DNA of 64,000 nt from Escherichia phage 241. The stretch lies in sequence record OR924452; one strand, written 5' to 3'. The translations under genes were made by a program, and so were the position numbers. Under the pieces are notes generated by a model. The model did not search any database and had not been told where the DNA came from. It worked only from the letters and a program-made list of their open reading frames with translations. Positions 9,210-42,533 of the stretch are shown here, piece after piece; the first letter of the stretch is position 1; each line of letters begins with the position of its first letter.

Positions 9210-9210
9210 G

Positions 9211-9240
9211 AGAAGGCGGGTTATCCCGCCTTTCTTTTTA
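9211..9240. terminator. bidirectional rho-independent terminator
   Basis: AAGGCGGG-TTAT-CCCGCCTT hairpin flanked by A-run and T-run, between convergent genes. Confidence 0.65.
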
Positions 9241-9450
9241 TAACTTGATGTCGCGGTCGGAAGGATTTGAATTTGCTAGAATATAACCATCAACCAAGTT
9301 CTTTTCATCCCACCATTCAATAAAATCATTTCCCTTTTCGTCTTTGATAAGACCCACAATGTTATATGAACCATCGGCGATTTTAGCGTCTACACAGATA
9401 ATTCTCACACGCCTTCCGTCACGAGTTTCTTTAATATCTTCAACCTTCAT
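9238..9450 (-). CDS. hypothetical protein (70 aa)
   Basis: Minus-strand ORF between genes 13 and 14, ends at the bidirectional terminator. Confidence 0.45.
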   Translation of the reverse strand: MKVEDIKETRDGRRVRIICVDAKIADGSYNIVGLIKDEKGNDFIEWWDEKNLVDGYILANSNPSDRDIKL

Positions 9451-9481
9451 TTATCAATTCCTCAAAAGAATTAATGATTGA

Positions 9482-9489
9482 CTAAATAC
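9482..9489 (+). promoter_or_regulatory. late-promoter-like motif CTAAATAC
   Basis: About 22 nt upstream of ATG 9512; followed by CTTCAAAATTGAG, also seen before the sheath gene. Confidence 0.5.
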
Positions 9490-9511
9490 CTTCAAAATTG
9501 AGGGTAAAGTC

Positions 9512-10153: not shown

Positions 10154-10155
10154 TC

Positions 10156-10854: not shown

Positions 10855-10856
10855 TC

Positions 10857-11537
10857 ATGAGCAATATGTCAGAAAGGTTACTTGCGACGCTAGACGCGGT
10901 GACTGCCAGAGATGAAGTTGGTAAGGAGGCGATGGAAGCCGTCTCTCCACGTCCAGGTATTGACTTCGATGAAAAAACGGGCGAGTGGTTTGGTGAACGC
11001 CCAGAAGGTTATCAGCCGATTCCAGAACCTCCATCATTGGAAGATATCGCGTCCAAAGAATCCAAGGTTCCGGAGTTTGCGGATACTGATGCCACAACAG
11101 ATTACAAGCGAATACGCGATACGACATACGCCATGCAGGAAGCCACGATGTTCATGATGGGGCAAGCTGCTAAATTAGCTGCATCTACCGAAGCCCCAAG
11201 AGCGTTTTCTGTGTTTCGTGAATTGGGCGAACTCATGCGCGGCCTGAACAAAGACCTGATGGAAAACCAAAAAACCATCAAAGCTGTGACAGGGGATAAA
11301 GAACCGCCGACTGATGACACAACCGTGGATGTTACCACTTCACCCGACGGGACCACAACAGTATCTGTTGGGAAGAAAGCGAGATCTTCGCGCGATTTAT
11401 TGAAAACGATCGAAGATGCACGCCGCCGCGCTGAAGAACGCGCTCAGGCAAAAGCCACCCAACAAACCGAAGATGAAATTATCGACGGTGAAACGGTTGA
11501 CGTGAAGGAAAAAGACGATGGCGTATCAGAAGCGTGA
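10857..11537 (+). CDS. terminase small subunit, T4 gp16-like
   Basis: Immediately upstream of and overlapping the large terminase gene; GGAGGA RBS before ATG 10857; acidic/charged C-terminal region. Confidence 0.55.
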   Translation: MSNMSERLLATLDAVTARDEVGKEAMEAVSPRPGIDFDEKTGEWFGERPEGYQPIPEPPSLEDIASKESKVPEFADTDATTDYKRIRDTTYAMQEATMFMMGQAAKLAASTEAPRAFSVFRELGELMRGLNKDLMENQKTIKAVTGDKEPPTDDTTVDVTTSPDGTTTVSVGKKARSSRDLLKTIEDARRRAEERAQAKATQQTEDEIIDGETVDVKEKDDGVSEA

Positions 11538-27489: not shown

Positions 27490-27945
27490 ATGAGCGAAAC
27501 AAAACTTGAAACGATGAAAACCGAAGATATAATGGCAGAATTGGAACCTCTTATTTCGGTAAATCCTGAAGACATGAACTTAGACCAAATGTCATTGAAA
27601 ATTGGTCGTTCGTGGATGACTGTGCAACGCCATTATATTCGTGAAGGAAGATATCTGGAGTATCTAACTGGCAAATTCCGCCAAATAGATCTCTATTTAC
27701 GCCGATTTTATGCAGGGGAATTGCCGCCCAACGTTTATGTTGAACGCCCATTAAAAGTTCGACCCCTGAAATCTGATATAGACGTATGGGTAAAAGCAGA
27801 TGATGATTATATCGAATTGTCTAGCATGCTTCAAGAGCAGAAAGCCAAAGTCAAGTTCATCGAAAGTTGCTTAGATCGTTTGAACAAACTCGGATATGAA
27901 GTGAAGAATGCTATTGATTGGCGAAAATATTTGGATGGGATGTAA
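27490..27945 (+). CDS. uvsY: recombination mediator UvsY-like
   Basis: C-terminal CLDRLNKLGYEVKNAIDWRKYLDG resembles T4 UvsY ALDAIKSRGFAIKHIQDMRAFEAG; adjacent to uvsW as in T4. Confidence 0.6.
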   Translation: MSETKLETMKTEDIMAELEPLISVNPEDMNLDQMSLKIGRSWMTVQRHYIREGRYLEYLTGKFRQIDLYLRRFYAGELPPNVYVERPLKVRPLKSDIDVWVKADDDYIELSSMLQEQKAKVKFIESCLDRLNKLGYEVKNAIDWRKYLDGM

Positions 27946-28691
27946 TGGTTTCTCTACAGGCTTTGCGCAAACTTAATGACTTTGAAAATCGTCATCATAC
28001 ATTTCAGCAATATTCCTTGCCGTTTAAGGAACTGACTTGCGTAACTACCGAAAATGGTCGTCACTATGTTTCTCCCACTGGAGTCAAACTAACTTCAGTG
28101 ACGACCATGTTAGGGCGTACTGGTGACCACACATGGTTAGAAGCCTGGCGGGACAAGTTGGGGCATGAAGCTGCTGATATAGAAACACATCGTTGCGCAG
28201 ACCGTGGGGAAAAACTTCATTTGGCTTGTGAGTTGTATCTCAAAAACAGACCAATGAAGGAAGTTCTGGAAGCTGCAGGGGAATACGTGTTTATGTTCAA
28301 ACAGGTTTTCCCCTACCTTAACAAAATGAGCAAGATATATGCACAAGAGATTCCATTATATAGCGAAGTCCTGGGTCTTGCTGGTCGTGTTGACCTTATC
28401 GGGGTTTACGAAGGAATTCCAAGCATAATCGATTTCAAAACATCCAACACCCTGAAAACTCGGAGCATGATAGAAGATTACAGCATTCAACTATGCCTGT
28501 ACTCAGTCATGTTTCAACAGATGTTTAATGTTAAGATCGAACGTTTGGTCAATATTATATCTAATGAAAATTCTCTTGTCCCGACTATAATCGAATTTAA
28601 TCGAAAAGACGTTATTTCTAAAATGTTTGATCGTGTTCGCCTGTATCATAAAATGGATAAAGAACAGAACGGGATCTGGGCGGATCGCTAA
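27945..28691 (+). CDS. PD-(D/E)xK family nuclease (Cas4/RecB-like fold)
   Basis: GRVDLIG...IIDFKTS matches the D...(D/E)xK core; ATG 27945 overlaps uvsY stop (TAATG). Confidence 0.5.
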   Translation: MVSLQALRKLNDFENRHHTFQQYSLPFKELTCVTTENGRHYVSPTGVKLTSVTTMLGRTGDHTWLEAWRDKLGHEAADIETHRCADRGEKLHLACELYLKNRPMKEVLEAAGEYVFMFKQVFPYLNKMSKIYAQEIPLYSEVLGLAGRVDLIGVYEGIPSIIDFKTSNTLKTRSMIEDYSIQLCLYSVMFQQMFNVKIERLVNIISNENSLVPTIIEFNRKDVISKMFDRVRLYHKMDKEQNGIWADR

Positions 28692-28695
28692 ATAC
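28688..28695 (+). promoter_or_regulatory. late-promoter-like motif CTAAATAC
   Basis: About 25 nt upstream of uvsW ATG 28720 (uvsW is a late gene in T4). Confidence 0.45.
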
Positions 28696-28719
28696 TCCAT
28701 AATATTGGGGGAATTAGTG

Positions 28720-30225
28720 ATGTCAGAAATTCAAATAATCAAAGTTAACGAAGTGCGCATGCGAATCTTGGCGGAGGACTATATCCGCGAAGAACTCAAT
28801 GATTACTTCAAATTTGAAGATCCTAATTTCCAACCGAATCCCTTCAGTAAATGGGATGGCGTGGTACGCTTGTTCACAAAGAGTTCTGGTCTTATAGACA
28901 TCGGTCTGTTGTTTGAGGTGTTTAAGTTCTGTAAGATGAATGGTTACACCATCAAATTAGATCCCGCCTTAAAATATATCCAAGATATACCAGACGAAGA
29001 GATACATACATTTATCAATTCCCTGAACGCTGTTTACCGTGATGAAAACAAGCAATACCAAATCGCAACAGTGCGGGACTATCAATTCGACTCAGTGGCC
29101 ACAGCAATACGCCAATCCAGATGCGTGCTAGAAGCGGCTACGAGCGCGGGTAAATCGTTTATTTTGTACATCATGGCGCGTTACTACAGGCAACGCAGAG
29201 AGGCACTGGAAAGCAATCTCAAGACGTTGATCGTTGTACCTTCCATTCACTTGGTGACTCAGTTGTATGACAACTTTGAGGAATACAGCCATGGCACAAA
29301 TTGGAATACCATGATGAATGTCCAGATGATATGTGAAGGCGCAACAAAGGACATATTCAAGCCCATAGTCATTTCTACATGGCAGGGTATTCAGAATCAG
29401 CCCAAAGAATGGTTCCATCAATTTGGGGATATTGTTGTCGACGAAGTACACACATCTAAATCTGAAAAGCTATCTTATATCCTGAACAACTGCATTAATG
29501 CTGACCAAAGATTGGGAGTAACCGGAACCCTCGCGAATACAAAGGTTGCAGGGTTGCAGGTCGTTGCCCATTTTGGAGCATACCATAAAATTATTACAGC
29601 ACGTGATTTAATAAATCTTGGTTATGCCACAGATATCCATGTCAACATGATTGAAGTCATACATCCCATGGCGGATTGTATAGAAATGCATGGTGCTGAG
29701 TATCAAAAGGAAATAGAATTCCTCATAGCGAATGAACGTCGAAACGAGTTAATAGCCAGAATGGCATTGTCTTTGAAAGGTAACGTGGCCGTTATGTTCG
29801 AACGCATTGACGCCCATATGATGATTGTTTATGAAATGCTTTCAGCCGTTAAGAAAAACGTATTTGTCATTAACGGCGAAGTTAAGACAGAAGTTCGTAA
29901 ACAAATTCAGGCAGCGATGGAAGAGGGTGAAGATATAACACTGCTGGCATCTTATGGGACCATGCAACAGGGAGTGTCGATCAAAAAACTTCATCATTTG
30001 ATATTGGCACACCCGAGTAAATCCTATATCCGTGTCATACAGACTTTAGGGCGTCTCATGCGCCAGCACTCTTCAAAGGATGTCGCCAAGATCTGGGATT
30101 TAGTAGACAACTTGCGTTACAATGGATTCTCGTACAACCATGCTCTCAGACATTCGCATGAGAGATATAAATTTTATCTTATGGAGCGACACCCTGTACA
30201 AATGAAGAAAGTGTCGCTCCAGTAA
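28720..30225 (+). CDS. uvsW: ATP-dependent DNA helicase UvsW
   Basis: EAATSAGKSF Walker A, IVVDEVH Walker B; VISTWQGIQNQPKEWFHQFG matches T4 UvsW VVGTWQTVVKQPKEWFSQFG; 501 aa from ATG 28720. Confidence 0.9.
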   Translation: MSEIQIIKVNEVRMRILAEDYIREELNDYFKFEDPNFQPNPFSKWDGVVRLFTKSSGLIDIGLLFEVFKFCKMNGYTIKLDPALKYIQDIPDEEIHTFINSLNAVYRDENKQYQIATVRDYQFDSVATAIRQSRCVLEAATSAGKSFILYIMARYYRQRREALESNLKTLIVVPSIHLVTQLYDNFEEYSHGTNWNTMMNVQMICEGATKDIFKPIVISTWQGIQNQPKEWFHQFGDIVVDEVHTSKSEKLSYILNNCINADQRLGVTGTLANTKVAGLQVVAHFGAYHKIITARDLINLGYATDIHVNMIEVIHPMADCIEMHGAEYQKEIEFLIANERRNELIARMALSLKGNVAVMFERIDAHMMIVYEMLSAVKKNVFVINGEVKTEVRKQIQAAMEEGEDITLLASYGTMQQGVSIKKLHHLILAHPSKSYIRVIQTLGRLMRQHSSKDVAKIWDLVDNLRYNGFSYNHALRHSHERYKFYLMERHPVQMKKVSLQ

Positions 30226-30226
30226 T

Positions 30227-30571
30227 TCATTTGTCTTGGTTCACATAGGCGGGGGTCGCCTCGCCTTCTTTGTCAGAACCGAATAAACAACCCATCGTGC
30301 TGATGCATTGTTGTAGAACTTCTGGATCCAGAATCTGACACAACAGTTGTTCATTACATTCCAGCAATGGGACAACTTTCACTTCCCGCGCCTGTCCTTG
30401 TTGAATAATGCCGACATATAGACCTTTGGTGTCTGGCAGTAACGGGATCACCATCATTGGTGTCACAACAAACTTAGAAGTGCAATAGAGGCTGTGTAGG
30501 TAAACACCTTTCAATGCCGGACATGCTTCTTGTTCTTCCCCCACTGCATATAAACCCACGAATTGTTTCAT
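30227..30571 (-). CDS. hypothetical protein (114 aa, Cys-containing)
   Basis: Minus-strand ORF divergent from gene 45. Confidence 0.45.
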   Translation of the reverse strand: MKQFVGLYAVGEEQEACPALKGVYLHSLYCTSKFVVTPMMVIPLLPDTKGLYVGIIQQGQAREVKVVPLLECNEQLLCQILDPEVLQQCISTMGCLFGSDKEGEATPAYVNQDK

Positions 30572-30906
30572 ATATTACTCTCTTGTTAGTAAACATGACT
30601 ACATAATAATTTCATGCTGTGTTTAGACCAAATAAATTATTTTGCTAGTTGAATAAAAATCGCTTTCTTGTTGAACAAACCGTGCGTAATATACGAGTTG
30701 TGAGCTTTGCGAGCAACGAGTATTATCACGAGCGAAGCGAGTAGACTAATAAAGAAAGGTTTATTAAAACAGAATACTATAAATGCCGTCAGGCATTTAT
30801 TTATCGCGCGTAGGGCATTTTAACACTTGTTCTATAACTGCAAACACGCGATACTAATTTGCGTCAAACATGACTTGAACCCCACTATATTTTGAGGATA
30901 TAAACA

Positions 30907-31575
30907 ATGCAAGAGATCACTCTCTCTGAACGTACTTTACAACTGCTGGCCAACTTTGAAACCATTTGCCCTTCTATCGTTCTGGCACCTGGTAAAAAGC
31001 TGCGCACTGTTAACGACTCCAGCACCGTCATCGCTATCGCTGACATCGACGAAGACTTCCCGTTTGAATTCCCTATTTTGGATCTGACCAAACTTCTGGC
31101 CATTCAGCGTCTGCCTAGTTTCAAAGGCGGTAAAATCGAAATGTCGGAAGATCATATTTTACTGAAAGGTGAAAACTCGCAGCTGCAATTCTGGCGCTCA
31201 GCAAAAGAATTGACTGTCGTTCCTGCCGACAGCATTGATCTCCCGTCCGTTGAATTCGAAGCGACGGTCACTCCTGAAAAAATGAAAGAGCTGACCCGCG
31301 CCTGTTCTACTCTGGGACACAAAACTGTTCGTCTGGTTGCCAGCGGCGGTAAAACCCGTCTGGTCGGTACGACTACGACTATCGATAATTCCAACGATTA
31401 CACCGTTGAATTGGGTGAAACTGCTCTGGCTGATTTCGCTATGCCTGTCGACGTTGTTAACCTGAAAATGATCGAAGGCAACTATGTGATCCGCGCCTGT
31501 GCTGAAATGCAGCTTGTTAACTTCCAGTCGGCTGACGGCACCATCAACTACTACGTTGGCATGCAGCTGGATTAA
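30907..31575 (+). CDS. sliding clamp, T4 gp45-like
   Basis: 222 aa; N-terminal LQLLANFETICPSIVL resembles T4 gp45 TALLKNFATINSGIML; followed by clamp-loader genes. Confidence 0.85.
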   Translation: MQEITLSERTLQLLANFETICPSIVLAPGKKLRTVNDSSTVIAIADIDEDFPFEFPILDLTKLLAIQRLPSFKGGKIEMSEDHILLKGENSQLQFWRSAKELTVVPADSIDLPSVEFEATVTPEKMKELTRACSTLGHKTVRLVASGGKTRLVGTTTTIDNSNDYTVELGETALADFAMPVDVVNLKMIEGNYVIRACAEMQLVNFQSADGTINYYVGMQLD

Positions 31576-31603
31576 TCAATATCGCTTCGGCGCTTTATTA
31601 TCG

Positions 31604-31630
31604 GTGGCGGGGTTATTATCCCGCCCTTTG
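31604..31630 (+). terminator. hairpin terminator / attenuator between genes 45 and 44
   Basis: GGCGGGG-TTATTAT-CCCGCC hairpin followed by TTTG. Confidence 0.5.
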
Positions 31631-31655
31631 AAATGTTTTATCTAAAGAGGCTGCA

Positions 31656-32645
31656 ATGTCCAACATTACTATCGTTACAGACCAATACGCGTGGGAAAAC
31701 AAATATCGTCCTGATAATTTAGATGAGATCGTTCTCCCCTCAGACGTCCGTGCCAAGATCCATGGTTATGTTACCTCTGGCAACGGAAACATCCCCTCTA
31801 TGCTGTTCTACTCCCCTCAGCCTGGTACGGGTAAAACTACTTCTGCTCTGGCCGTGTGCAATGAAATCGGTTGTGTGAAACCTCTGATGATCAACGCATC
31901 GCTTGACAACAGCATTGATGTGATTCGCGATCGTGTTATTCAATATGCTACTGGCGTCAGCGTTTTCGGTGGTCGGAAAGTCGTCATCCTCGACGAAGTT
32001 GAGCGTCTTTCTATGGCGGCTCAGGAATCATTGAAAGGTATCGTGGAAAAGGTTTCCAAGAACTGCTCGTTTATCCTGACCACCAACGCCAAACAGCGTG
32101 TCAATGAGCCTCTGCGTTCTCGTTGCCGTGAAATTGATTTCATCTGGTCCGAAAAAGAAGCCGACGAAGTTAAACTTCAATTTATGCGTCGTTGTGCCGC
32201 TATCCTGACAGAAGAAGGCATTCCATACGAAGCTGGTGTTATTGCGTCGATTGTCAAGTCGTATTTCCCCGACAACCGTAAGATTATGGGCACCCTTCAG
32301 GATAATGCCACCACGTTTGGTAAAATCGATGAACGTGCTTTAGCTCAGGTGAAAGCGGGTGAATTCCAGGCGCTGGTCGATTTCTTAAAGGCCAATGATT
32401 GGGCTGGTATGAAGCAATGGGTGACCGACAACCAAAACTACATTACAGAGGACTTCTACTCTCGGTTTTTCCATTTCTGTGTCCCACAGAACAAAGAGAA
32501 GACTCCTTTGATTCAGAACGAATCTATCCCAGATTTGGTCTGCGTTTGTGGTCAGTCACAGATTGAACATCGTTCAGTTGGAGACGTCTGGTTACACGGC
32601 GTTTACTTCCTGACCAACGTCATGCTCAACATCAAGTGGAAGTGA
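31656..32645 (+). CDS. clamp loader large subunit, T4 gp44-like (AAA+ ATPase)
   Basis: Walker A PQPGTGKTT, Walker B VVILDEVERL; synteny 45-44-62. Confidence 0.85.
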   Translation: MSNITIVTDQYAWENKYRPDNLDEIVLPSDVRAKIHGYVTSGNGNIPSMLFYSPQPGTGKTTSALAVCNEIGCVKPLMINASLDNSIDVIRDRVIQYATGVSVFGGRKVVILDEVERLSMAAQESLKGIVEKVSKNCSFILTTNAKQRVNEPLRSRCREIDFIWSEKEADEVKLQFMRRCAAILTEEGIPYEAGVIASIVKSYFPDNRKIMGTLQDNATTFGKIDERALAQVKAGEFQALVDFLKANDWAGMKQWVTDNQNYITEDFYSRFFHFCVPQNKEKTPLIQNESIPDLVCVCGQSQIEHRSVGDVWLHGVYFLTNVMLNIKWK

Positions 32646-32649
32646 TATT

Positions 32650-33072
32650 ATGGCCGCTCCGTCACTGTTCGATTACCTGGGTGCTCTGAACAGCACCAAA
32701 GAGAATCTGTTGTTGACCGAAGACCCCGAAATCAGAAAGGCATTTGATCCTTTCATGACTCGGCGCGGCCTTGCCCAGAGTAAAGACACGTTGGTGGTTG
32801 CAGAACGAATGAACCACTTTCATGCCATTACTCCTTGGATGCAATGGAACCTTGCGTTTCATAGCATTCCGGCGAAACGCCGTTATGGCAAATGGTCTAA
32901 GAAAGGAGCCATGGACCCTGATGTAAAATTGATTTCTGAGTATTACTACATCAGTCCTGAAAAGGCTTCTGAGTATGTTCGATTCCTGCCGAAAGAAGTC
33001 CTGGCTGAAATCAAGGCGAAGGTCGAACGTTCCAACAGCAACGAAAAAGCTAAACCGCGCAAGGCTAAGTAA
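32650..33072 (+). CDS. clamp loader small subunit, T4 gp62-like
   Basis: AKRRYGKWSK resembles T4 gp62 RGKRYGKWAK; synteny. Confidence 0.7.
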   Translation: MAAPSLFDYLGALNSTKENLLLTEDPEIRKAFDPFMTRRGLAQSKDTLVVAERMNHFHAITPWMQWNLAFHSIPAKRRYGKWSKKGAMDPDVKLISEYYYISPEKASEYVRFLPKEVLAEIKAKVERSNSNEKAKPRKAK

Positions 33073-33101
33073 TTCAAATTATTGTTAAAGGGGTACGAGT
33101 C

Positions 33102-33566
33102 ATGGCGCGTAATACGCTGGACATCTTGAAACTTTCAGCTGTTAACGATGAGGCCAGCATCGTTGATTGTATGGTTGAAGTTCAATTGAACCAAGATAAA
33201 CCAGGAATTTTCCTGGGTATCAAGGAAACGCTGAGCCGCATCGGGGTGAACACTCGTCAAGAGCCGAATACCCTGTACCAAACATGTCATATTCTGCATA
33301 AATTTGGCAGATATCACATCGTGCACTTCAAGCATCTTTTCATGCTGGATGGGCATTACAACGGCTTTACGCGTGAAGATGTCCTGCGTATGAATCGGAT
33401 TATTCGGCTTTTGGAGCAGTGGAATATGGTTAAAATACTGCATCCGGAACAGATTACCGAAGTTGCTGATATGTCTCGAATCAAAGTTGTAAAACATGAC
33501 CAAGTTTCTGATTGGAAACTGGTTCCAAAATATACCATCCGCCCGAGTCGGGCGAAAAGCGAATAA
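33102..33566 (+). CDS. regA: translational repressor RegA
   Basis: QTCHILHKFGRYHIVHFKHLFMLDG and DWKLVPKYTI match T4 RegA; start may be the internal Met at 33171, which aligns with the T4 N-terminus. Confidence 0.85.
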   Translation: MARNTLDILKLSAVNDEASIVDCMVEVQLNQDKPGIFLGIKETLSRIGVNTRQEPNTLYQTCHILHKFGRYHIVHFKHLFMLDGHYNGFTREDVLRMNRIIRLLEQWNMVKILHPEQITEVADMSRIKVVKHDQVSDWKLVPKYTIRPSRAKSE

Positions 33567-33582
33567 CTGGAGTCGCTATATT

Positions 33583-34446
33583 ATGACAACTACATTTAAT
33601 AAAAACGTGAGACTGAATCTGGCTTTTGGTAATGCTGCAGGGGACGTGACCGCCCCCGACTTTAGCAAAATACGCAATCAGGCGAAACTCGTGCTGGAAG
33701 AGACCCGCGAACTTCTGGAAGCGGCTTATTACGATCATCAAGTGGTTCTAACATTAGAATTGAATCCTCGAGAAAGCGAGACGCCGACCACTACCGAAGA
33801 TCTGATGAAAGCCATCATGGACGCGCAGGGTGATATCACTACTGTTAACGACGGTGTGGCCCATATCGCGGGTTTCAATGGCGATGAGTGCTTACAGCGC
33901 GTGTTTGCTTCCAACATGAGCAAGTTTATCCGCTCTGAAGATGAAGTCGGTCCGGCTCTGGACTATTACTATTCTCGCGGTTTCCCTGATGGGCAATTGC
34001 GTGTGGAAGGCGAATTCCCTCAGGCATGTATTAAAGTTAATGAAACTGTCGTTTGGAATGGTAAAGAATATCCTAAAGGGAAATTCCTTAAAAACATGGC
34101 CGTTTTCCAAGAGCCTGATTTTTCTGACATGCTGACCAAAACTCCTTCCCGTCAGATCAACGATATCGTTGCCAGCATGGCGATTGAAGAAGGTCAGGTG
34201 TTTATCGATGATCTCAATGGCGTGGCGTTGGTATCTCCGAACACATTGGGTGTAATCCTTTCCATGGCTGTTGAAAAAACTTCTCAACCTGTAGAGATCG
34301 ACGGGCAAATCGAAAGTTATGTGCCAGCGTTCATCGTGGATGACACCAATATGCCTAAGCTGTGTGGGGTGTGGGGTTCTAATGTTCGTGTTTATGCGAG
34401 CACTCCAGTGCAGAACACGGTAACACACCTCTCCCGTATCGATTAA
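33583..34446 (+). CDS. hypothetical protein (288 aa)
   Basis: ATG 33583 follows regA stop; no family recognised. Confidence 0.5.
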   Translation: MTTTFNKNVRLNLAFGNAAGDVTAPDFSKIRNQAKLVLEETRELLEAAYYDHQVVLTLELNPRESETPTTTEDLMKAIMDAQGDITTVNDGVAHIAGFNGDECLQRVFASNMSKFIRSEDEVGPALDYYYSRGFPDGQLRVEGEFPQACIKVNETVVWNGKEYPKGKFLKNMAVFQEPDFSDMLTKTPSRQINDIVASMAIEEGQVFIDDLNGVALVSPNTLGVILSMAVEKTSQPVEIDGQIESYVPAFIVDDTNMPKLCGVWGSNVRVYASTPVQNTVTHLSRID

Positions 34447-34468
34447 TATAAACCGTTATTCATTAAAC

Positions 34469-34497
34469 AACAGAGGCTATAATGGCCTCTGTTTTTG
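34469..34497 (+). terminator. rho-independent terminator
   Basis: CAGAGGC-TATAATG-GCCTCTG hairpin followed by TTTTTG. Confidence 0.6.
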
Positions 34498-34515
34498 TAT
34501 TCTAGAGAGGATACC

Positions 34516-35739
34516 ATGAAAGATAAACCGTGTGACATTCCTTATTGCGGTGTTCGGGAAACCAAAATTAAATCTGCACACCCCACGTTAAGTCCATTCC
34601 ATAAACAACTCGCATACGAATGGATGAGTGAGCGCTATAAGATCCACGTGAGAAAGGACGTCCAACGTCTTCCTGCTCCTTGGACGGATAATCCCATACT
34701 ACGGCAGGTCAAGTTCTGTAACGTCCGGAGAGAGCACGACAGGCAGTCTCTTAACCTGATCAACAATATCGTCAAGAACGATGCTCTGGGCATGGCCGAC
34801 AAGATGTTCAACTGTGTTCTGTTCCGCATGTTCAACCTCTGGGACCCGATCAAGGCTATCGGTGACGCTCGTACTATCAAAGAGTTCGCAAACATCGATC
34901 TTGATGCAACCCGCAAAAGTCTTCAGGAATTTGAGGCCAACGGTGGTAAGATCTTCACCAATGCCTTCAACACAGGCGGTCTAAAGCAGTGTCTGGCGTT
35001 CCCCGAACTCGTTGTCAACCACAAGGAGCAGCGCTTTGGTGGTATGATGGTTAAGGTACACCGTGTTGGCCAGGGTATCGTTGATGAATTGGATTACAAG
35101 GTCGCCAAGAAGCTGGTTGAAGAAAATCCTGGGGAGTACACGATCGAGGGCTGGGAGCCGTACATGCCGATGCGTGTTATCCGTTCCCTGAAGGCATTTG
35201 TCAACAAGTATCCTGATTATTTCAATGATCTTTTACGTCTTGACTCTCCGCTGAAAGTTTACCAGCGCATGTATGACGACATTGAAGGGCTTGGGCCATT
35301 CCTGGCATATCAGATATGGGTGGACTTCACATACATCCCTGAGTATCCATTCAGTGAGAATCACTTCACCATCGCTGGCCCAGGTTGCCGTGCGGGTATT
35401 GACCTGATGTTCCTGGATAAGGACGGTATGACTCATGAAGAGTGCATCTTCTGGGTTCGAGATCACCAGTATCAATTGTTTGCCCAGTATGGTTATGTCC
35501 AAGAGCAGTTCTGGTCAGCCGAAGCGCCGGAAGATCAGTGCATGAATGTCATGCAGCTGGAGAACATGTTCTGTGAATTGAGCAAGTACACCCGCTGTGT
35601 TGAGGCTATTGAGAGAGGGGAAAAGCCACGCGGCAAGGTCGGTTACGATGGAGGCGGAGAATACAAAAAGCGGTGCGATGAAGTTGTCCTTAAACGCGGT
35701 TCCGTCAATTTGTTAGATCGTTTGAAGAAACCTGAATAA
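34516..35739 (+). CDS. hypothetical protein (407 aa), Cys-rich
   Basis: ATG 34516 with GAGAGGATA RBS; no family assignable by inspection. Confidence 0.5.
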   Translation: MKDKPCDIPYCGVRETKIKSAHPTLSPFHKQLAYEWMSERYKIHVRKDVQRLPAPWTDNPILRQVKFCNVRREHDRQSLNLINNIVKNDALGMADKMFNCVLFRMFNLWDPIKAIGDARTIKEFANIDLDATRKSLQEFEANGGKIFTNAFNTGGLKQCLAFPELVVNHKEQRFGGMMVKVHRVGQGIVDELDYKVAKKLVEENPGEYTIEGWEPYMPMRVIRSLKAFVNKYPDYFNDLLRLDSPLKVYQRMYDDIEGLGPFLAYQIWVDFTYIPEYPFSENHFTIAGPGCRAGIDLMFLDKDGMTHEECIFWVRDHQYQLFAQYGYVQEQFWSAEAPEDQCMNVMQLENMFCELSKYTRCVEAIERGEKPRGKVGYDGGGEYKKRCDEVVLKRGSVNLLDRLKKPE

Positions 35740-35851
35740 AGAATCGCTTTACTTCATTCTTCAATAACCCCCTTTCAACGTATATTGACCTCACTTTAAC
35801 GACGCGCCCATTTAGGGCGCTCAATTTGAACTGAAACAGGAAGACTACACC

Positions 35852-37873
35852 ATGGCAGAATTTAAACCTTTCGCAACGGCTGTTAATGATAACGTGCTGG
35901 CGATGTCCGCAACTGGTCTGTTCATGACCAACGTTGATAAAGATGCTCTGTGGGATTTGTATTTGGCATCCTTCCCAGCTGGTACCAACCCGATGTACCG
36001 CGAACGCACTGAACACGACTGCACCTGCTGTAAACAATTCATCCGTAATATCGGCGGCGTCGTGACTATCGATGCTGACCTGAACGTTATCTCGATTTGG
36101 GACAACATTGAGCTGGGTAACGAATACGATGTGGTCGCGGCGGCGTTATCTGCATATGTCAAACAACACGCAATCGTTGATGTGTATTTCAACGATTCTG
36201 CTAAAGTCGGCCTGTCTCATAACCACGAATCTGGTGAAGACGGCAAAATCCGCACGTATAACCATTTCCACACAGAACTGCTCGGCAGCTATGTCCTGCG
36301 TTCTGATGCTATCGCATCTAAAAAAGGTGAAATCCGACAGGCTATCGAATTATTTGAACGCGGTCTGCGTGAAATTACTCTGGAATCAGCAGAAATCGTT
36401 CTGGAATTGATTGATCAGAATTCTTTGTATCGCGGTGCTGAACATAAAGCTGCGGTGATGGGCTTCGTAGTAGCCAAGACGGCATATGAAGAAATCCCAG
36501 AATCTAACCGTTCTCTGTGGGCATGGCGCACTGGTTATCGTTCAAACAATCATGTTCCACATGGCATTCGCAACACCGTTATCGGTACTCTGTTGACGGA
36601 TATCAGTGAAGGCGTGGAACTGGAAAAGGCCGTTAAGTCGTTTGAAACCAAAGTTGCCCCAGCGAACTACAAACGCCCGACGGCTCTGGTCTCCAAGTCC
36701 ATGATCGAAAACGCTCAGAAAGAAGTGATTGCTCTCGGTCTGGAAGATTCGCTGGCGCGTCGTTATGCAGTTTATGACGACCTGACGATCAATAACGTTC
36801 TGTTTGCAGACCTGGCTGCTCAAAAAGCGATGGATCCATTCGCTCAACTGGCCGCCGAAGTGAAAACGCCGACCAAGTCTCTGGATAAAGTTGAAGAGAT
36901 TGGCATTGATGACTTCCTGAGCAATATTCTGCCGAAAGCGCATTCGATGGAAGTGCTGGTTGAAAACTCGCATACTGGCAACCTTATGTCTCTGGTCGCT
37001 CCGGCTATTGCAGGTGCTCCTAACCTTTTCAAATGGGGCAACGGTTTCTCATGGTCATACAACGGCGAAGTGGCCGACTCCATCAAAGAGCGTGTGAAAG
37101 CGGCTGGCGGTAAAGTCGACGGGTTCCTCCGTGTATCCCTGGCCTGGCACAACAACGATGACCTCGATCTGCATATGTTCTTTAACAATATGGAACATGT
37201 GTACTTCCGCGATCGTCGTTCAATGACTGGTGCTCATCTCGATATCGACATGAACGGTATGGACGGCATCGACCCGAACCGCTCTCCGGTAGAAAACATC
37301 ATCTTCACTGATGAAAGAAAGTTGCGTGACGGTGAATATCGTTTTGAGATTCACAACTACAACCAACGTGAAAAGATCGACGAAGGGTTTGAAATTGAAG
37401 TTGAATACAAAGGCGCTACGCAACGTTTCAGCCACAATGGGTTAAAAGACCAGGGGCGCATCACTGCCGTCGTTCTGACTGTTAAAGACAAACAAGTCGT
37501 TAGCATCAAGTCTGAGCTGGCGAATGTTGATAAATCCAAAGAAATTTGGGGCATTAAGACAGCGACCTTCCAGAAGGTACAGCTGGTCCTGAACTCACCA
37601 AACCATTGGGATGGTGAACAAACTGGCAACAAGCACGTCTTCTTCATCTTGGAAGGTTGTGCGAATCCTGAAGGTACTCGTGGTTTCTACAATGAATATC
37701 TGAAGCCGGAACTGGATAAACATCGTAAGGTTTTTGAAATGCTGGGTAGTAAAATGAAAGTACAACCCAACGAAAACCAACTGTCTGGTCTGGGGTTCTC
37801 GACAACGCAACGCAACCATGTGTTCGTCAAAGTGTCCGGCGCGTTTAACCGTACTGTAAAAGTCATTTTCTAA
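35852..37873 (+). CDS. hypothetical large protein (673 aa)
   Basis: Long ORF with GGAAGA RBS; conserved-looking HDCTCC motif near N-terminus; no family recognised. Confidence 0.6.
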   Translation: MAEFKPFATAVNDNVLAMSATGLFMTNVDKDALWDLYLASFPAGTNPMYRERTEHDCTCCKQFIRNIGGVVTIDADLNVISIWDNIELGNEYDVVAAALSAYVKQHAIVDVYFNDSAKVGLSHNHESGEDGKIRTYNHFHTELLGSYVLRSDAIASKKGEIRQAIELFERGLREITLESAEIVLELIDQNSLYRGAEHKAAVMGFVVAKTAYEEIPESNRSLWAWRTGYRSNNHVPHGIRNTVIGTLLTDISEGVELEKAVKSFETKVAPANYKRPTALVSKSMIENAQKEVIALGLEDSLARRYAVYDDLTINNVLFADLAAQKAMDPFAQLAAEVKTPTKSLDKVEEIGIDDFLSNILPKAHSMEVLVENSHTGNLMSLVAPAIAGAPNLFKWGNGFSWSYNGEVADSIKERVKAAGGKVDGFLRVSLAWHNNDDLDLHMFFNNMEHVYFRDRRSMTGAHLDIDMNGMDGIDPNRSPVENIIFTDERKLRDGEYRFEIHNYNQREKIDEGFEIEVEYKGATQRFSHNGLKDQGRITAVVLTVKDKQVVSIKSELANVDKSKEIWGIKTATFQKVQLVLNSPNHWDGEQTGNKHVFFILEGCANPEGTRGFYNEYLKPELDKHRKVFEMLGSKMKVQPNENQLSGLGFSTTQRNHVFVKVSGAFNRTVKVIF

Positions 37874-37910
37874 TTGATTTGACAACAACTTCGTAATAAG
37901 GAACAAAGAA

Positions 37911-38282
37911 ATGTTTGATCAAGCAACCCGTTTAAAACTGCGTTTTAACTCCAACAAAGGTCTGCTGTCTGTTGAGCAGGTTTGGGATCTGAATCTGAAC
38001 GCACTGAACGAGCTGGCGAAAGATCTGAGCCGTCAGGTGAAAGAAGCAGCCAGTGATGAAGAAGACTTCATCGGTGTGAAAAGCGCGGTCGATTCTCAGT
38101 TACAACTGCGGTTCGATATCGTGAAAGCGATCATCGGTGTTAAACTGAAAGAACGCGATGAAAGCGCGACCGCAGCAGAGCGTAAAGCGAACAACCAGGC
38201 GATCATGGAACTGATCCAGCGTAAGAAACAACAGGAACTGGAAGGTCTGTCTGTTGAAGAACTGGAAAAACTCCTGAAATAA
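37911..38282 (+). CDS. hypothetical protein (123 aa, predicted helical)
   Basis: ORF with AAGGAA RBS, followed by strong terminator. Confidence 0.5.
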   Translation: MFDQATRLKLRFNSNKGLLSVEQVWDLNLNALNELAKDLSRQVKEAASDEEDFIGVKSAVDSQLQLRFDIVKAIIGVKLKERDESATAAERKANNQAIMELIQRKKQQELEGLSVEELEKLLK

Positions 38283-38301
38283 TCTGTCGGCTCCGGCCTG
38301 A

Positions 38302-38330
38302 GAAACCCCGCACACGGCGGGGTTTCTTTT
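38302..38330 (+). terminator. rho-independent terminator
   Basis: GAAACCCCGC-ACACG-GCGGGGTTTC hairpin followed by TTTT. Confidence 0.7.
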
Positions 38331-38341
38331 GGACAAAAATC

Positions 38342-38752
38342 ATGAAATCTATTACGTGTGATTACTGCGGTCAACCTGCCCAATACGTCGGGGGTGATGT
38401 TGTATACCCCCACCGCCCCGATCTCCGCAATCTGAAGTTCTGGGTATGCTCGCCATGCGACGCTCGTGTGGGTTGCCATACCCATGGGGATGGTAGACAA
38501 CCTCTGGGAAGGATGGCGAATGCCGCTCTCCGTGCTGCTAAGCAGGAAGCTCATAGATCGTTTGACCCTATCTGGAAAAGTGGGCAGAGGAGCAGGAGTG
38601 ATGCTTACAGCTGGCTGGCTCATAATTTGGGGATCAAGAAGCGCGATTGCCATATCGGCTTGTTCGATATCGATATGTGCCGTAAAGTAGTCGCTGTGTG
38701 TAATCAACTAAAGGCACAAGATAATGTCAAAGGAAATACAAGAAGCATTTGA
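38342..38752 (+). CDS. zinc-ribbon protein (two CxxC pairs)
   Basis: CDYCG...CSPCDARVGCH cysteine pattern. Confidence 0.5.
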   Translation: MKSITCDYCGQPAQYVGGDVVYPHRPDLRNLKFWVCSPCDARVGCHTHGDGRQPLGRMANAALRAAKQEAHRSFDPIWKSGQRSRSDAYSWLAHNLGIKKRDCHIGLFDIDMCRKVVAVCNQLKAQDNVKGNTRSI

Positions 38753-38975
38753 AAATTTATCTCAGGTAATGACCGACTGCAACCGCCGGAATTATTGTGA
38801 TGAAGCGTATACCAAATTGAAAACTGCTGTTGAAACCGAGCTGGCAGGTCTTTCCGTTTTCAAAGATATTCAGACCGAAGCGCTATATCTGTCGGATGAA
38901 GATTTAAGGCGTTGCCCCCGCAAGATTTACCAATTACTGGATCGTTTGGTGAAAGTGGGGGTGAATAATGGGTAA
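38724..38975 (+). CDS. hypothetical protein (83 aa)
   Basis: ORF overlapping neighbours by short junctions. Confidence 0.4.
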   Translation: MSKEIQEAFENLSQVMTDCNRRNYCDEAYTKLKTAVETELAGLSVFKDIQTEALYLSDEDLRRCPRKIYQLLDRLVKVGVNNG

Positions 38976-39693
38976 TCGTGAAGGGATTAAACTCACACCA
39001 GAACTTCTGAAGTCACATATTGCTGAAGTGATTTATGAAGACCGTGAAGTTGGTGGTCACCGCGTCATTACATGCCATTTCAAGATGGACAATGGGTTCG
39101 TTGTGTGGGGTAAGAATAGTTCCACATCGGTAGACCCTGCCAACTTCGATGAAGAAATAGGCAAGCAGCTGGCCTATGAAAAGACCTTTTCTCAACTGTG
39201 GGAACTGGAAGCATATCGCGCGATGGTAGAAAAGCAGATCATCGATGTGTCTGCCGAAGATGCTAAGATCAACATTGATGAATATGTGTCAGAAAGGGAA
39301 GCGATACATGAGATGGGTGGTTCTGAATTTCTTAAGGGTAAAGGACAATCCATCGTGTTTCGTCATCCCAAAGATCCAAGTCGGGGATTTCGCGTTGAAT
39401 TTGTTCGCACCGATAATGAACGTTATAACGAACGACGCAATGGTGAGGCACGATCTTTGGTGGAAGCGTATCTTCGCTCGTTCATGACTTCTGAAGATCT
39501 AAATTCTGAACTTGTCCTGCGTTTGGCGAAAACGTGTAATGCTGCTTCAGGGGATTATCCGTGGTGTGACCTGTCAGAAGACAAACGCCAAGCAGCCTGT
39601 GATCGTGTTAAGAAATTCTTGTTAGATCCAAAAGCCCAACCTGGCGATTCCGTAGGGGCACTGTATAGAGCCATTGTGGTGTCCTACTTGTAA
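38968..39693 (+). CDS. protein with N-terminal N4-gp49 / Sf6-gp66-like domain
   Basis: VITCHFKMDNGFVVWGKNSSTSVDPANFDEEIGKQLAYEKTFSQLWELEAY resembles the phage gp49/gp66 family signature. Confidence 0.5.
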   Translation: MGNREGIKLTPELLKSHIAEVIYEDREVGGHRVITCHFKMDNGFVVWGKNSSTSVDPANFDEEIGKQLAYEKTFSQLWELEAYRAMVEKQIIDVSAEDAKINIDEYVSEREAIHEMGGSEFLKGKGQSIVFRHPKDPSRGFRVEFVRTDNERYNERRNGEARSLVEAYLRSFMTSEDLNSELVLRLAKTCNAASGDYPWCDLSEDKRQAACDRVKKFLLDPKAQPGDSVGALYRAIVVSYL

Positions 39694-39960
39694 TTCTTCA
39701 AAAGTCTTTCAAAATCAATAACGTCCGGCAAAATGCTGGGCGTTTCAATTAATAAGCCAAGGTATAATGGCCCAACTGAAAACGCGGGGGAATTTCTTTG
39801 TCCAAGCCATTCATTCGTTCCGGAGTTGATTCTCTAGACTCCCAGTTTAAGCCGAGCGAAGTTTTAATCCAACAAATTGAAACCAATCGTGAATTCATAG
39901 AACACATGTTGGCAAAGCCGGAAGGTGAAGCCGCTCAAACCACCAAAGAAGGTAATAACG

Positions 39961-42177
39961 ATGATTGAATCATTAACATTTAAAAATGCGGTAGCAACCG
40001 TCGCGCCGTCTAACCATGTAATCGTTGTGGATATCTCCGGTTCCATGTACCGTTCACTTCCTGAAGTTCGCAAGCATCTGAAGGAAAATCTCCCGTCTCT
40101 GGTTAAACCAGAAGATACCGTCAGCATTCTTTACTTTTCATCCCGTGGTGATTTCGGTACGGTATTCGCTGGCCGTCAGATCAATAGCGCGACCGATCTC
40201 AGTGAAATCAATAAACTGATTGACCGCTTCCTGCAACCGTCCGGTTGTACGGGATTTGTAGAACCTCTGAAGTTGGCTGCTGAAACCGCGTTGAGCCTGA
40301 ACAAACCTGGTTATGTCAATAACCTGGCGTTCATGACCGACGGCTATGACAACTGCTGGCGCTCGAATGAAATTCTGGCAGCAGCTGAAGTACTGCCCAA
40401 GGCGTTCGATAATATTACATTCATCGAATATGGCTGGTACTGTAACCGCGAACTTCTGGCCCTGATGTCCGAGCGTTCTGGCGCGACTCACGTGTTTGCC
40501 GAAGGTCAGACTGAATATCAGACCGAACTGGAAAACGTACTGAAATCATCTACGCCGAAAGTGGTTGTTGATGTTCCCCTGGTTTACACTCATGCCATTT
40601 ACGTTGAAAACGGCGTGGCAACTGTGCTAGCCGTACAACCCGATGAAGAACACCCGATTGGCCACGTCAGCATCCCTGAAAGCGTTTCTCAGCTGTGGGT
40701 TGTAAACCCTGACATGATCGACCAGCTGGATAATCTGGCAGACACCCAGGCGGCATACGTGCTGGCATTCTATGGCGTGTACACCATGGACGCCGATCTG
40801 GTCTGGGCCGCGCTGAAGAAGACGGGTGACGTCCGCTTCATCAAACAATACAGCAACTGTTTCACCAAGCAGGACTATTCCAACATCAAAGTCGATCTGA
40901 CCCAGGCTATCGTGGATGAAACTCTGCGCGGCGTAGATGGCATCGATTACAATATGGTTCCAGCTGAAGATGCAACGACCATTGTTGATGTCTTGACCTA
41001 CCTGGCCGAAGCCGATGTCTCTGTTGTCACTAAGCATCCGCTGTTCTCTTACAACAGCATCGGTCGCGGTACTGTGCAGAAAGTTGATGACACTGAAGAC
41101 AAGCTGGCTGAACAAATCGCCGAAGCCAAAACCAAAGCAGAGCGTAAAGCGCTGGCTCTCAAACTGGCTGAGCACGAAGATTGGACGCCGGAATTTACTC
41201 CGGTTGATGACAAAGGGATTGTCCCAATTAGCAATCTGGTCTACAATTCAGAGCGCCCTAACATCAGCATTCAGACCGTTCAGCATGGGACGGTTGTTGT
41301 GCCGGAGTTCGTACAGAAGAAATATGAACTCCCTGAAGAACTGGGAACCTGGCGTTATCGTAATTACACCATCGTCAAAGATGGAATCATCAACCTGAAG
41401 ACGATGCCGATTACTGCCGAATCTCCGATTGTCCGAGCTAAGGTTGTCCAAGATTTGATCGCCATGGGCGTTAATGTATTTGGTGGACCGGAAATCTTCA
41501 TCGTTAATTTAGAAAGTGTTCCGATGGTCAACCGCGCCATGACCAAGAACATCAGTGCTGCCGAATTCTTCGCTGACAACGTTCGTCGCGAAGCGCTGAA
41601 GGCAAAACAGAAAGTTCTGAAATTCTATCGTGATGAACTGGTTGGCAAAGGCAATGCAACTGGTCTGGCTTCTAAATATGGTAAAGAAGCCGCCGATTTC
41701 TTGTCGGCAAATGGCATTCGCGACTACGGGTTCTCGCCGAAAACTACTTCTGTGGAATCAACCGATGTCTACATGAGCCGTGAGCTGAATGTGAAAATCA
41801 AAGGTGCTTCGTCGCTGCCGAGCATTGCGTCAGTTATCAAAAAGCAAGCAGATGGTAAAAAACTGAATGTCGCTGATCAGTTGATTGCCAATGCTCTGGC
41901 CGAATACGACGCTTTTGTTAAATCTCCAATGATCACCAGCGTACCTGAAGAGACTCAGAAAAAGCTGATTGAAAGCTGGATCGGAGACGCAGCAAAAGCG
42001 GCCATTAACGAAGTCCGCGCCCTGAACAAAACGCTGTCTAAAGTCGTTTACGGCATCGTCGCTGGTCATGGTTGGTTCACTGATTTGGATCTGGAAGAGT
42101 CTACGATGGATGTAGAAGTTGATGGGGTGAAATACACCGTCACTGCCGAACTGGCCGAAAAAGAAATCAAAATCTAA
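39961..42177 (+). CDS. von Willebrand factor type A (vWA) domain protein with long C-terminal extension
   Basis: MIDAS motif VVDISGSM (DxSxS) and downstream MTDGYDN; ATG 39961 preferred over upstream GTG 39925. Confidence 0.65.
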   Translation: MIESLTFKNAVATVAPSNHVIVVDISGSMYRSLPEVRKHLKENLPSLVKPEDTVSILYFSSRGDFGTVFAGRQINSATDLSEINKLIDRFLQPSGCTGFVEPLKLAAETALSLNKPGYVNNLAFMTDGYDNCWRSNEILAAAEVLPKAFDNITFIEYGWYCNRELLALMSERSGATHVFAEGQTEYQTELENVLKSSTPKVVVDVPLVYTHAIYVENGVATVLAVQPDEEHPIGHVSIPESVSQLWVVNPDMIDQLDNLADTQAAYVLAFYGVYTMDADLVWAALKKTGDVRFIKQYSNCFTKQDYSNIKVDLTQAIVDETLRGVDGIDYNMVPAEDATTIVDVLTYLAEADVSVVTKHPLFSYNSIGRGTVQKVDDTEDKLAEQIAEAKTKAERKALALKLAEHEDWTPEFTPVDDKGIVPISNLVYNSERPNISIQTVQHGTVVVPEFVQKKYELPEELGTWRYRNYTIVKDGIINLKTMPITAESPIVRAKVVQDLIAMGVNVFGGPEIFIVNLESVPMVNRAMTKNISAAEFFADNVRREALKAKQKVLKFYRDELVGKGNATGLASKYGKEAADFLSANGIRDYGFSPKTTSVESTDVYMSRELNVKIKGASSLPSIASVIKKQADGKKLNVADQLIANALAEYDAFVKSPMITSVPEETQKKLIESWIGDAAKAAINEVRALNKTLSKVVYGIVAGHGWFTDLDLEESTMDVEVDGVKYTVTAELAEKEIKI

Positions 42178-42183
42178 ATCTAA

Positions 42184-42210
42184 TTGGCGGGGAAACCCGC
42201 CTTTACTTTC
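42184..42210 (+). terminator. hairpin terminator
   Basis: GGCGGG-GAAA-CCCGCC hairpin followed by TTTACTTTC. Confidence 0.5.
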
Positions 42211-42215
42211 AGGAA

Positions 42216-42533
42216 ATGAATATGAGCAACAAACCGACTTATGTTGATGTCATGCGCGATTTGGCCCAATACGCATGTGACAACCTGAACATGGAAACTT
42301 GGCGCAACGGCGATCATAAAGAAAAGTTCGATAATATCGACGACAACATCGATGCGTTGGCTCCTCTTCGGGCCAAGAGCGATCTCGGCGGTGATGATCT
42401 TGACATGATTGAACTCATCATGGAAGTTGAAGAACAATATGATGTTGAAATCAGTGATGACTGGGTAGGCAAACATGGTGATGATCCCACGCTCGGCGAA
42501 TTAGCTGAATTGGTAGTTGCCCTCCGCAAATAG
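42216..42533 (+). CDS. acyl-carrier-protein-like protein with Asp in place of the phosphopantetheine-attachment Ser
   Basis: LGGDDLDMIELIMEVEEQYDVEISDD resembles ACP LGADSLDTVELVMALEEEF...IPDE but has DDL instead of DSL; start may be 42222. Confidence 0.5.
   Translation: MNMSNKPTYVDVMRDLAQYACDNLNMETWRNGDHKEKFDNIDDNIDALAPLRAKSDLGGDDLDMIELIMEVEEQYDVEISDDWVGKHGDDPTLGELAELVVALRK

Follow-up and report, generated by a model that had tools for sequence, protein, structure and literature searches.

A DUF8224 protein of Escherichia phage 241 is paired with a small helical protein across diverse phages and prophages

INTRODUCTION

The tellurite-resistance protein TerD folds as a Ca2+-binding beta-sandwich (PDB 2qz7, 2kxt), and TerD domains have been discussed as ligand sensors in Ter systems, in whose operons TerD-vWA associations also exist (PMC7824862). 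Domains of the PPC or jelly-roll type stand at the C-termini of the subtilisin-like proteases Tk-SP (3afg) and KP-43 (1wmd), and the collagen-binding domains of collagenases (1nqd, 3jqw) can be grouped with them for comparison. Whereas PPC-type domains are extracellular appendages of proteases, we describe here a phage protein of 673 amino acids (aa), apparently cytoplasmic, in which a beta-sandwich of this general kind is an insertion in a far bigger polypeptide without Ter-operon partners. Its open reading frame (ORF) lies in Escherichia phage 241, on a 64,000-nucleotide stretch of DNA (sequence record OR924452) that was analysed as a whole and is called the window below. An earlier note on this DNA had described the ORF as a large, single-copy, conserved gene of no recognisable family that heads an accessory block ending with genes for vWA and acyl-carrier-like (ACP-like) proteins. 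We find that its conserved companion is a downstream gene for a 123-aa helical protein, and that this pair recurs in phages of unrelated hosts and in prophages.

As an object the family is already known, not in function. Three points were not found stated in the sources that we searched, and we regard them as new: that the partner is obligate, that the architecture includes an insertion, and that the pair stands apart from neighbouring systems. A ~670-aa architecture kept at ~45-50% identity across many phage families and prophages places the family among the larger pieces of phage 'dark matter'.

RESULTS

The 673-aa protein belongs to a widespread phage family

The pair and the two hairpins that flank it are placed in the window as follows.

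35852..37873, (+) strand: gene for the putative large subunit, DUF8224 / PHROG 1735; ATG start, 673 aa (ORF and translation)
37911..38282, (+) strand: gene for the putative small subunit (partner), a 123-aa helical protein, PHROG 2018 (partner profile)
35801..35822, (+) strand: small GC hairpin in the 112-nt gap between a 5-hydroxymethyldeoxyuridine (5-hmdU) kinase gene and the ORF; -13.8 kcal/mol, z = -3.9
38300..38331, (+) strand: GC-rich 12-bp hairpin with a U-run; fold -27.9 kcal/mol, z = -4.1

The window comes from a Kuttervirus, a ViI-like phage of the Ackermannviridae; over positions 33000-42500 it shares 99.3% identity with Salmonella phage AR2819 and 99.2% with Escherichia phage ECML-4, two members of that genus. 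By computed properties the 673-aa product has a mass of 75.5 kDa and a pI of 5.7 and is predicted to be soluble, without a transmembrane segment. It has only four cysteines (C57, C59, C60 and C603), and its gene is present once in the window. The exact sequence is on deposit as a hypothetical protein of Escherichia phage 241, in a cluster that includes CBA120_gp119. A homologue search returned 7,389 matches among 8,000 candidates scored, and at 50% identity there were 4,698 clusters with E<=1e-3 (1,219 with E<=1e-30); as judged from these homologue numbers, the ORF is real, far beyond chance. The earlier picture of a large, conserved, single-copy protein is thus borne out.

Residues 1-673 align with positions 1-673 of the PHROG 1735 profile (E=0, 1043 bits). 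Precomputed annotation places PF26675 (DUF8224) on a 97%-identical cluster representative, on all 120 listed long-form homologues and on shorter forms described below, so that membership of the window protein in DUF8224 is near-certain by proxy of these annotated homologues. The protein itself gave 0 matches in our local Pfam-A, a copy that does not hold the PF26675 model, and searches of NCBIfam, PADLOC and PDB sequences with the single protein gave no match. Because PHROG 1735 and PF26675 are both entries of unknown function, the family is catalogued without an assigned function. The statement that the protein has no recognisable family therefore keeps its force for function and loses it for cataloguing; the known-family assignment that the earlier note would have counted against itself exists in a formal sense only. 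Literature searches for PF26675, DUF8224 and the PHROG identifiers found no mention of them, and those for RYYR-CCHC and Kuttervirus transcriptomes found nothing relevant.

Nearly all of the best 150 of the 4,698 clusters are ~650-700 aa long and 40-51% identical to the query over the full length. Of 50,697 phage records, 557 have the gene, or about 1% of the phage genomes sequenced. Carriers include Ackermannviridae, Mydovirus (Vequintavirinae), Schitoviridae, Bastille-like Bacillus phages and phiCbK-like Caulobacter phages, together with Vibrio phages, Cellulophaga phages, one cyanophage and prophages, and their hosts are Gram-positive, Gram-negative and cyanobacterial. Bacterial and archaeal assemblies contributed 58 loci, among them a complete Limnoglobus chromosome, one C. 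difficile plasmid and large contigs of Bradyrhizobium, Azorhizobium, Eubacterium and Ruminococcus. Within the Ackermannviridae, identities range from 56 to 100% in step with taxonomy, and inheritance within phage families looks vertical. The Foldseek comparison that had been proposed for a predicted structure, run against BFVD with the 673-aa model, returned uncharacterised relatives only. One of its matches was a 624-aa protein of the giant virus Indivirus ILV1 (A0A1V0SEF2; E 3e-7, 11% identity), which suggests distant relatives beyond tailed phages.

The long form is always found beside a small helical partner

A partner hidden Markov model (HMM) was built from 47 same-position proteins and run on all fetched loci. 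The partner was found on the same strand beside the large gene in 79/79 viral (IMG/VR) loci: in most it is the next gene downstream, in some one gene lies between, and in three it is directly upstream. It was likewise present in 53 of the 58 cellular-genome loci, the contigs of the remaining 5 ending at or within the large gene, so that the long form adjoins a ~125-aa partner in 132/132 testable loci; fetched loci L001-L003 and L005-L007 also contain it. The pairing spans Ackermannviridae, Vequintavirinae, Schitoviridae, Bastille-like Bacillus phages, phiCbK-like phages, a cyanophage and prophages. No other gene recurred beside the pair in this way, and the runner-up among neighbour families in cellular genomes was seen in 7/50 loci.

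The partner has no Pfam family and no informative name. The beta-hairpin motif KLRFxTxKGxLSxEQLWDL lies in its N-terminal part, residues 59-111 form a long helix, SVEELEKLLK lies at its C-terminus, and its AlphaFold2 (AF2) model has a predicted local distance difference test score (pLDDT) of 81. Two phage contigs from metagenomes, unrelated to the window, have a gene in this position whose product is 38-47% identical to it.

The stronger hairpin lies directly after the partner stop codon, and 0/200 shuffled sequences were as stable; it is likely an intrinsic terminator that closes the two-gene unit, although a simple terminator consensus scan did not pick it up. The hairpin at 35801..35822 is a possible boundary on the upstream side. 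Given hairpins on both sides of the pair, the ORF and its partner are suggested to be a discrete bicistronic unit. A scan for sigma-70 and terminator consensus sequences gave no excess of sites, and the T4-type late promoter motif TATAAATA was not found near the 673-aa gene.

A TerD-like sandwich is inserted in a conserved core

The domains of the large protein correspond to these coordinates.

35852..36856, (+) strand: N-terminal conserved region, residues 1-335, with motifs NYKRP and RRYA
36014..36031, (+) strand: HDCTCC motif, residues 55-60 (position in translation)
36263-36265, (+) strand: H138 codon, completing CxxC...H
36887..37084, (+) strand: C-terminal core part 1, residues 346-411; kept in short forms, with invariant columns
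37085..37537, (+) strand: inserted TerD/PPC-like beta-sandwich, residues ~412-562
37538..37870, (+) strand: C-terminal core part 2, residues 563-673; kept in short forms, with invariant columns

In the AF2 model (mean pLDDT 83) an alpha/beta subdomain (~1-150) comes first and a helical one (~151-335) second; a disordered linker (336-345) then leads to a beta-rich C-terminal half. Family members of ~540 aa, for which we aligned those of Pamexvirus phiH2, Bosavirus FMYAK-P1 and a jumbo Klebsiella phage, lack residues ~403-560 and keep the N-terminal region, 346-402 and 565-673. These short forms also carry PF26675, and all are annotated hypothetical. Since they are without exactly that stretch, the ten-strand TerD-like sandwich (426-553) is an insertion in the conserved core. 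The partner is missing from 7/7 short-form loci examined; small genes downstream of two short forms were compared with it and are not partner homologues. Partner presence thus coincides with presence of the insert.

Residue conservation was scored across 54 diverse relatives, short forms included. Eleven residues are invariant in long and short forms alike (Y37, F41, C57, C60, G68, H138, G245, R275, A288, R303 and R304), and R52, D56, C59 and Y273 are among many further residues with at least 90% conservation. The invariant CxxC...H (C57, C60, H138) suggests a candidate metal (Zn) site, beside which no conserved fourth ligand was identified among the aligned relatives. The HDCTCC motif that the earlier note had pointed out thus contains two invariant cysteines and two further residues, D56 and C59, conserved to at least 90%. 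Part 1 of the C-terminal core has invariant W395, S400, W401, Y403 and G405, and part 2, the best conserved stretch of the protein, has the motifs SPNHWDG, GNKH, RGFYNE, HRKVxE and SGLGFS. Mean pairwise distance was lowest for the C-terminal core (0.40), followed by the N-terminal region (0.51), the insert (0.55) and the partner (0.57). The His/Asp-rich stretches already noticed in the sequence are HNNDDLDLH at 433-441 and HLDIDMNGMDGID at 462-474; they fall in the insert, whose acidic residues D437, D439, D464, D466 and E481 are invariant.

An ATP-dependent DNA or RNA ligase had been considered for the segment KVDGFLR (421-427) and discounted. We agree: K421 and D423 are not conserved across the family (consensus AGGxVxGxLR), no ligase Pfam family matches, and in the AF2 model the segment is the N-terminal edge of the inserted TerD-like region, just ahead of its first strand.

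The insert's relation to TerD and PPC domains is one of fold only. It shares the beta-sandwich with TerD at 13% identity; the TerD Pfam model did not match the isolated insert region even at E<=10, and a profile of 52 inserts gave no match to TerD chains in the PDB. Against the PDB as a whole, the best hit of that profile was the 'LxW..DLDLxL..P.G' strand of the Tk-SP jelly-roll domain (E~0.8, not significant); sequence matches to Tk-SP and KP-43 lay at E 0.8-0.9, and those to the collagen-binding domains were not significant either. PDB searches with profiles of the N-half, insert, C-half and partner gave no significant match, and BacB cupin (E 0.018), UHRF2 pre-RING (E 0.02) and Tk-SP (E 0.8) were judged chance or motif-level hits. 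The M2-1 core domain of human respiratory syncytial virus and human metapneumovirus (HRSV, HMPV; 5nkx, 4cs7), the helical core of a transcription antiterminator, resembles the model at 9-10% identity, and the likeness may be the generic one of a small helical bundle without a functional link. For the core, neither the Pfam member scan nor the PDB profile searches found a fold or sequence relative: scanned one by one at E<=1, the 54 N-domains gave no recurrent family, the best being FtsK_SpoIIIE in 6/54 (E>=0.013). An RYYR-CCHC zinc module was matched by one short form (E=0.057); the match was not repeated among the 54 members, in which no conserved fourth ligand was identified, and it was rejected.

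In several phages the gene is split into two or three ORFs, for example of ~175 aa and ~475 aa, as seen in PHROGs 25920, 21434, 23228 and 38165, in the BFVD entries A0A1I9S6F7 and A0A1I9S6F6 and in record OK539832 (pSC20). The split point is close to the border between the alpha/beta and helical subdomains, and frameshifts, sequencing errors or intervening elements are possible causes. On a contig of an Acidobacteriaceae metagenome-assembled genome (locus 5953-8451), the large gene is in about ten frame-shifted pieces and the partner in two; either this copy has decayed, or the long-read assembly contains indel errors.

A possible two-subunit accessory factor of nucleic-acid metabolism

The pair lives in the part of phage genomes that serves nucleic-acid metabolism. 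In the window it is co-directional with genes for the clamp, clamp loader, UvsY, UvsW and RegA. Outside the Ackermannviridae, recurrent neighbours are an ATP-dependent DNA ligase, DnaB-type helicase, PolA, Dda/Pif1-type helicase and Mre11-type phosphoesterase, at positions and distances that vary, and the short form in FMYAK-P1 adjoins RNR, PNK and ligase.

In our reading the ORF encodes the larger of the two subunits of a phage module that is old and self-contained, and in which a ~75-kDa DUF8224 protein and a ~14-kDa helical partner would act as a cytoplasmic two-subunit accessory factor of phage nucleic-acid metabolism with putative metal binding. We give this reading a rough probability of 0.4; it draws on the family's conservation, apparently vertical inheritance and solubility, on the candidate metal site and the Arg/Tyr/His/Glu motifs, and on the replication and repair setting. 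The two genes would be read together, as a single bicistronic unit, alongside early/middle genes for replication and repair, and their products would form a soluble cytoplasmic complex. Activity would reside in the conserved core, made up of the N-terminal domain and the split C-terminal beta-domain, where the invariant CxxC...H probably holds Zn with conserved Arg/Tyr motifs beside it. Because identity levels off at ~42-51% over the full length across phages of unrelated hosts, the target of the core may be a universal substrate, nucleic acid or nucleotide, and not a protein specific to one host. The TerD/PPC-like sandwich would be a later add-on, probably binding Ca2+ or another ligand, that may have arrived with the partner and either offers it a place to dock or serves in regulation; it is their co-occurrence alone that suggests docking of the partner on the insert. 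Overall, the module would be a conditionally dispensable accessory factor of phage DNA/RNA metabolism.

Several points weigh against this reading. We infer the role of the core as an enzyme or nucleic-acid binder from conservation and context, because no fold or profile relative was found. The pI of 5.7 is mildly acidic, unlike that of a general DNA-binding protein. In a mirror-tree comparison, partner distances track the core (r 0.74) rather than the insert (r 0.45; partial r 0.06), which gives a specific link of partner and insert no support. Ligase genes were counted within ~7 kb of the pair in 16/64 viral and 8/58 cellular-genome loci, a modest share on raw counts, and the positions of neighbours vary. 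Finally, an anti-defence or competition cassette would account just as well for loss in one lineage and for movement into prophages and a transposase-flanked site.

It is conceivable, and we advance it tentatively, that DUF8224 and its partner are more specifically a new virus-specific enzyme complex of new fold that works on DNA, RNA or a nucleotide, for instance in repair, processing or modification. If true, an enzyme complex would have been kept from Ackermannviridae to phages of Bacillus, Caulobacter and cyanobacteria and to prophages, possibly with relatives in giant viruses, and the TerD-like sandwich and partner would be its metal- or ligand-dependent regulatory add-on. With an operon, a domain map, candidate catalytic or metal residues and a lineage of natural loss to hand, function is directly testable, and CBA120, ViI and phage 241 are tractable phages for the family.

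The lineage of natural loss is the Limestonevirus Dickeya phage XF4, which holds only residues 1-89 as a 93-aa ORF at 92% identity and from which the partner is gone, whereas Dickeya phage phiD3 still has the partner. That just an N-terminal remnant is left in XF4 indicates that the module can be lost, that is, that it is dispensable. The remnant (fetched locus 4100-6450) adjoins the homing endonuclease F-LimVI and a short NadV (Nampt) fragment, and the region looks like an insertion/deletion hotspot in Limestoneviruses.

Dispensability in XF4 would also suit a counter-defence or host-takeover cassette, in which the pair would inhibit a host immune signal or protein or act as a sponge for it, with the TerD-like sandwich as ligand-binding module and the helical partner as an adaptor. 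Further points in its favour are the compact, hairpin-bounded two-gene layout, the otherwise unconserved contexts that include prophages, the C. difficile plasmid and the transposase-flanked site, and the discussion of TerD domains as ligand sensors (PMC7824862). Genes for salvage of nicotinamide adenine dinucleotide (NAD) are also nearby in 4/16 Ackermannviridae, 6/64 other viral and 1/7 short-form loci, about 10% overall, and such genes are known counter-defence genes in other phages. However, ~45-50% full-length identity across phages of unrelated hosts and apparently vertical inheritance are atypical of the targeting of host-specific defence, and short forms without sandwich and partner nevertheless keep the conserved core. 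PADLOC, which covers defence systems only, gave no model match to the large protein, the partner or the 750-aa vWA protein encoded further downstream. On balance we hold a counter-defence role to be doubtful, while keeping it in view as the chief rival of the accessory factor. The ligase and NAD-salvage neighbourhood, being modest and variable in position, was not accepted as a functional link.

The pair is unlikely to be a virion component or an RNA polymerase

A role in the virion or its assembly, for example as an ejected internal protein or a chaperone, was weighed against proteomic data. In CsCl-purified virions of the Kuttervirus Sajous1, gp179 gave 3 spectra and gp180 gave 1, against 924 for the capsid protein (PMC10892097). 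From the gene order between clamp loader gp174 and vWA protein gp185, we infer that gp179 and gp180 are the DUF8224 locus. Besides these few spectra, a virion role could appeal to one record (Salmonella phage Arash) that calls the partner a 'structural protein', and to the commonness of beta-sandwich domains in virion proteins. The counts, however, are in the range of the clamp loader and single-stranded DNA-binding protein, that is, of contaminants (PMC10892097), and in every lineage examined the genes lie in replication modules and not structural ones. The trace spectra therefore indicate that the proteins are made but are not real virion components, and we consider a part in the virion quite improbable.

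Both Sajous1 products, apparently including the partner, are labelled 'putative DNA-directed RNA polymerase' (PMC10892097). Such labels in GenBank and RefSeq (BIS47, PG11, Se-B, Guerrero, GEC_vB_GOT, pSC20 and Sajous1) are all that speaks for reading the ORF as a DNA-directed RNA polymerase. They have no detectable basis in KY652726 (BIS47), OP745480 (PG11), MW006476, OK539832 and YP_009948979, and neither a T7-like polymerase domain nor a double-psi beta-barrel with DxDGD was found. A polymerase is scarcely credible here, and the label looks like a propagated mis-annotation. Misleading leads are thereby removed: this annotation, the hypermodification neighbour and the vWA/ACP block, the last two of which are taken up below.

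Kinase, vWA and ACP genes are neighbours in one phage family

The named genes around the pair in the window are the following.

34495-35739, (+) strand: 5-hmdU DNA kinase, PF18723 HMUDK_hel (E=2.7e-83), orthologue of ViI gp67
38342-38752, (+) strand: 136-aa DUF3268 zinc-finger-containing protein (E=7e-38)
39925-42177, (+) strand: 750-aa vWA protein, vWA at residues ~32-195
42216-42533, (+) strand: ACP-like PP-binding protein, 105 aa, directly after the vWA gene (PP-binding domain confirmed)

The kinase gene marks the phage as a Kuttervirus that hypermodifies thymidine in the manner of 5-(2-aminoethoxy)methyldeoxyuridine (5-NeOmdU); PHROG 2396 still lists this kinase family as of unknown function. 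The ORF lies directly downstream of the PF18723 kinase in 16/16 Ackermannviridae loci, and short forms occur in Pamexvirus, a thymidine-modifying lineage, so that a further enzyme of ViI-type hypermodification might be suspected. Yet ViI 5-NeOmdU synthesis was reconstituted from gp67, gp160, gp226, gp243 and gp247 alone, without a DUF8224 gene (PMC5889632, PMC8989533), the kinase is beside the pair in 0/64 other viral and 0/58 cellular-genome loci, and a hairpin stands between the kinase gene and the ORF. We judge a hypermodification enzyme to be very improbable.

The accessory block proposed in the earlier note would make the ORF the first gene of a functional unit with the vWA and ACP-like proteins, much as TerD and vWA proteins are associated in Ter operons (PMC7824862). 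The order ORF, vWA, ACP is kept in 16/16 Ackermannviridae loci, and the vWA and PP-binding domains were confirmed. Extending the proposed neighbourhood analysis to all loci, we found the gene to be widespread but the vWA link limited nearly wholly to the Ackermannviridae: the 750-aa vWA protein is by the pair in 1/64 other viral and 0/58 cellular-genome loci, missing from 63/64 and 58/58. In the window, a strong hairpin and four other genes separate the pair from the vWA gene, and XF4 has kept its vWA and ACP genes despite loss of the module. BLAST had paired the insert weakly with the vWA protein; hhalign, run both against the single sequence and profile against profile, did not uphold this match, and it was rejected. 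The block thus gives way to a conserved unit of the ORF and the downstream 123-aa gene, set apart from the rest by a hairpin, and a shared function with vWA and ACP is improbable. The vWA-ACP pair is itself specific to Ackermannviridae, and the other ~550 residues of the vWA protein match PHROG 2426 (unknown function) only.

Upstream lies a T4-like replication and recombination block (27490-33566) encoding UvsY, a PD-(D/E)XK nuclease, a UvsW-type helicase, the gp45 clamp, the gp44/gp62 clamp loader and RegA, followed by a MazG-like pyrophosphatase at 33496-34446; the whole arrangement is ordinary for this phage group. At the DUF3268 site the AR2819 record has a shorter, 79-aa ORF (14512-14751 of the fetched locus), the start site of which was probably mis-called.

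Two single loci show other neighbours. In Rhizobium phage RHph_X66 (fetched locus 1095-12338) the short form has an RtcB RNA ligase on one side and an NMNAT/NUDIX-Nampt NAD-salvage pair on the other; Rnl2 and an HD phosphohydrolase are encoded upstream of RtcB, and this RNA-repair/NAD setting might hint at function. In Ruminococcus sp. AM36-2AA (8689-11346) the pair is followed, after a few hundred bases that hold one small ORF, by the gene for an 885-aa P-type cation ATPase whose domains are like those of a Ca2+-ATPase, and an NAD-dependent DNA ligase lies upstream; as a single case, the ATPase neighbour may mark a prophage edge.

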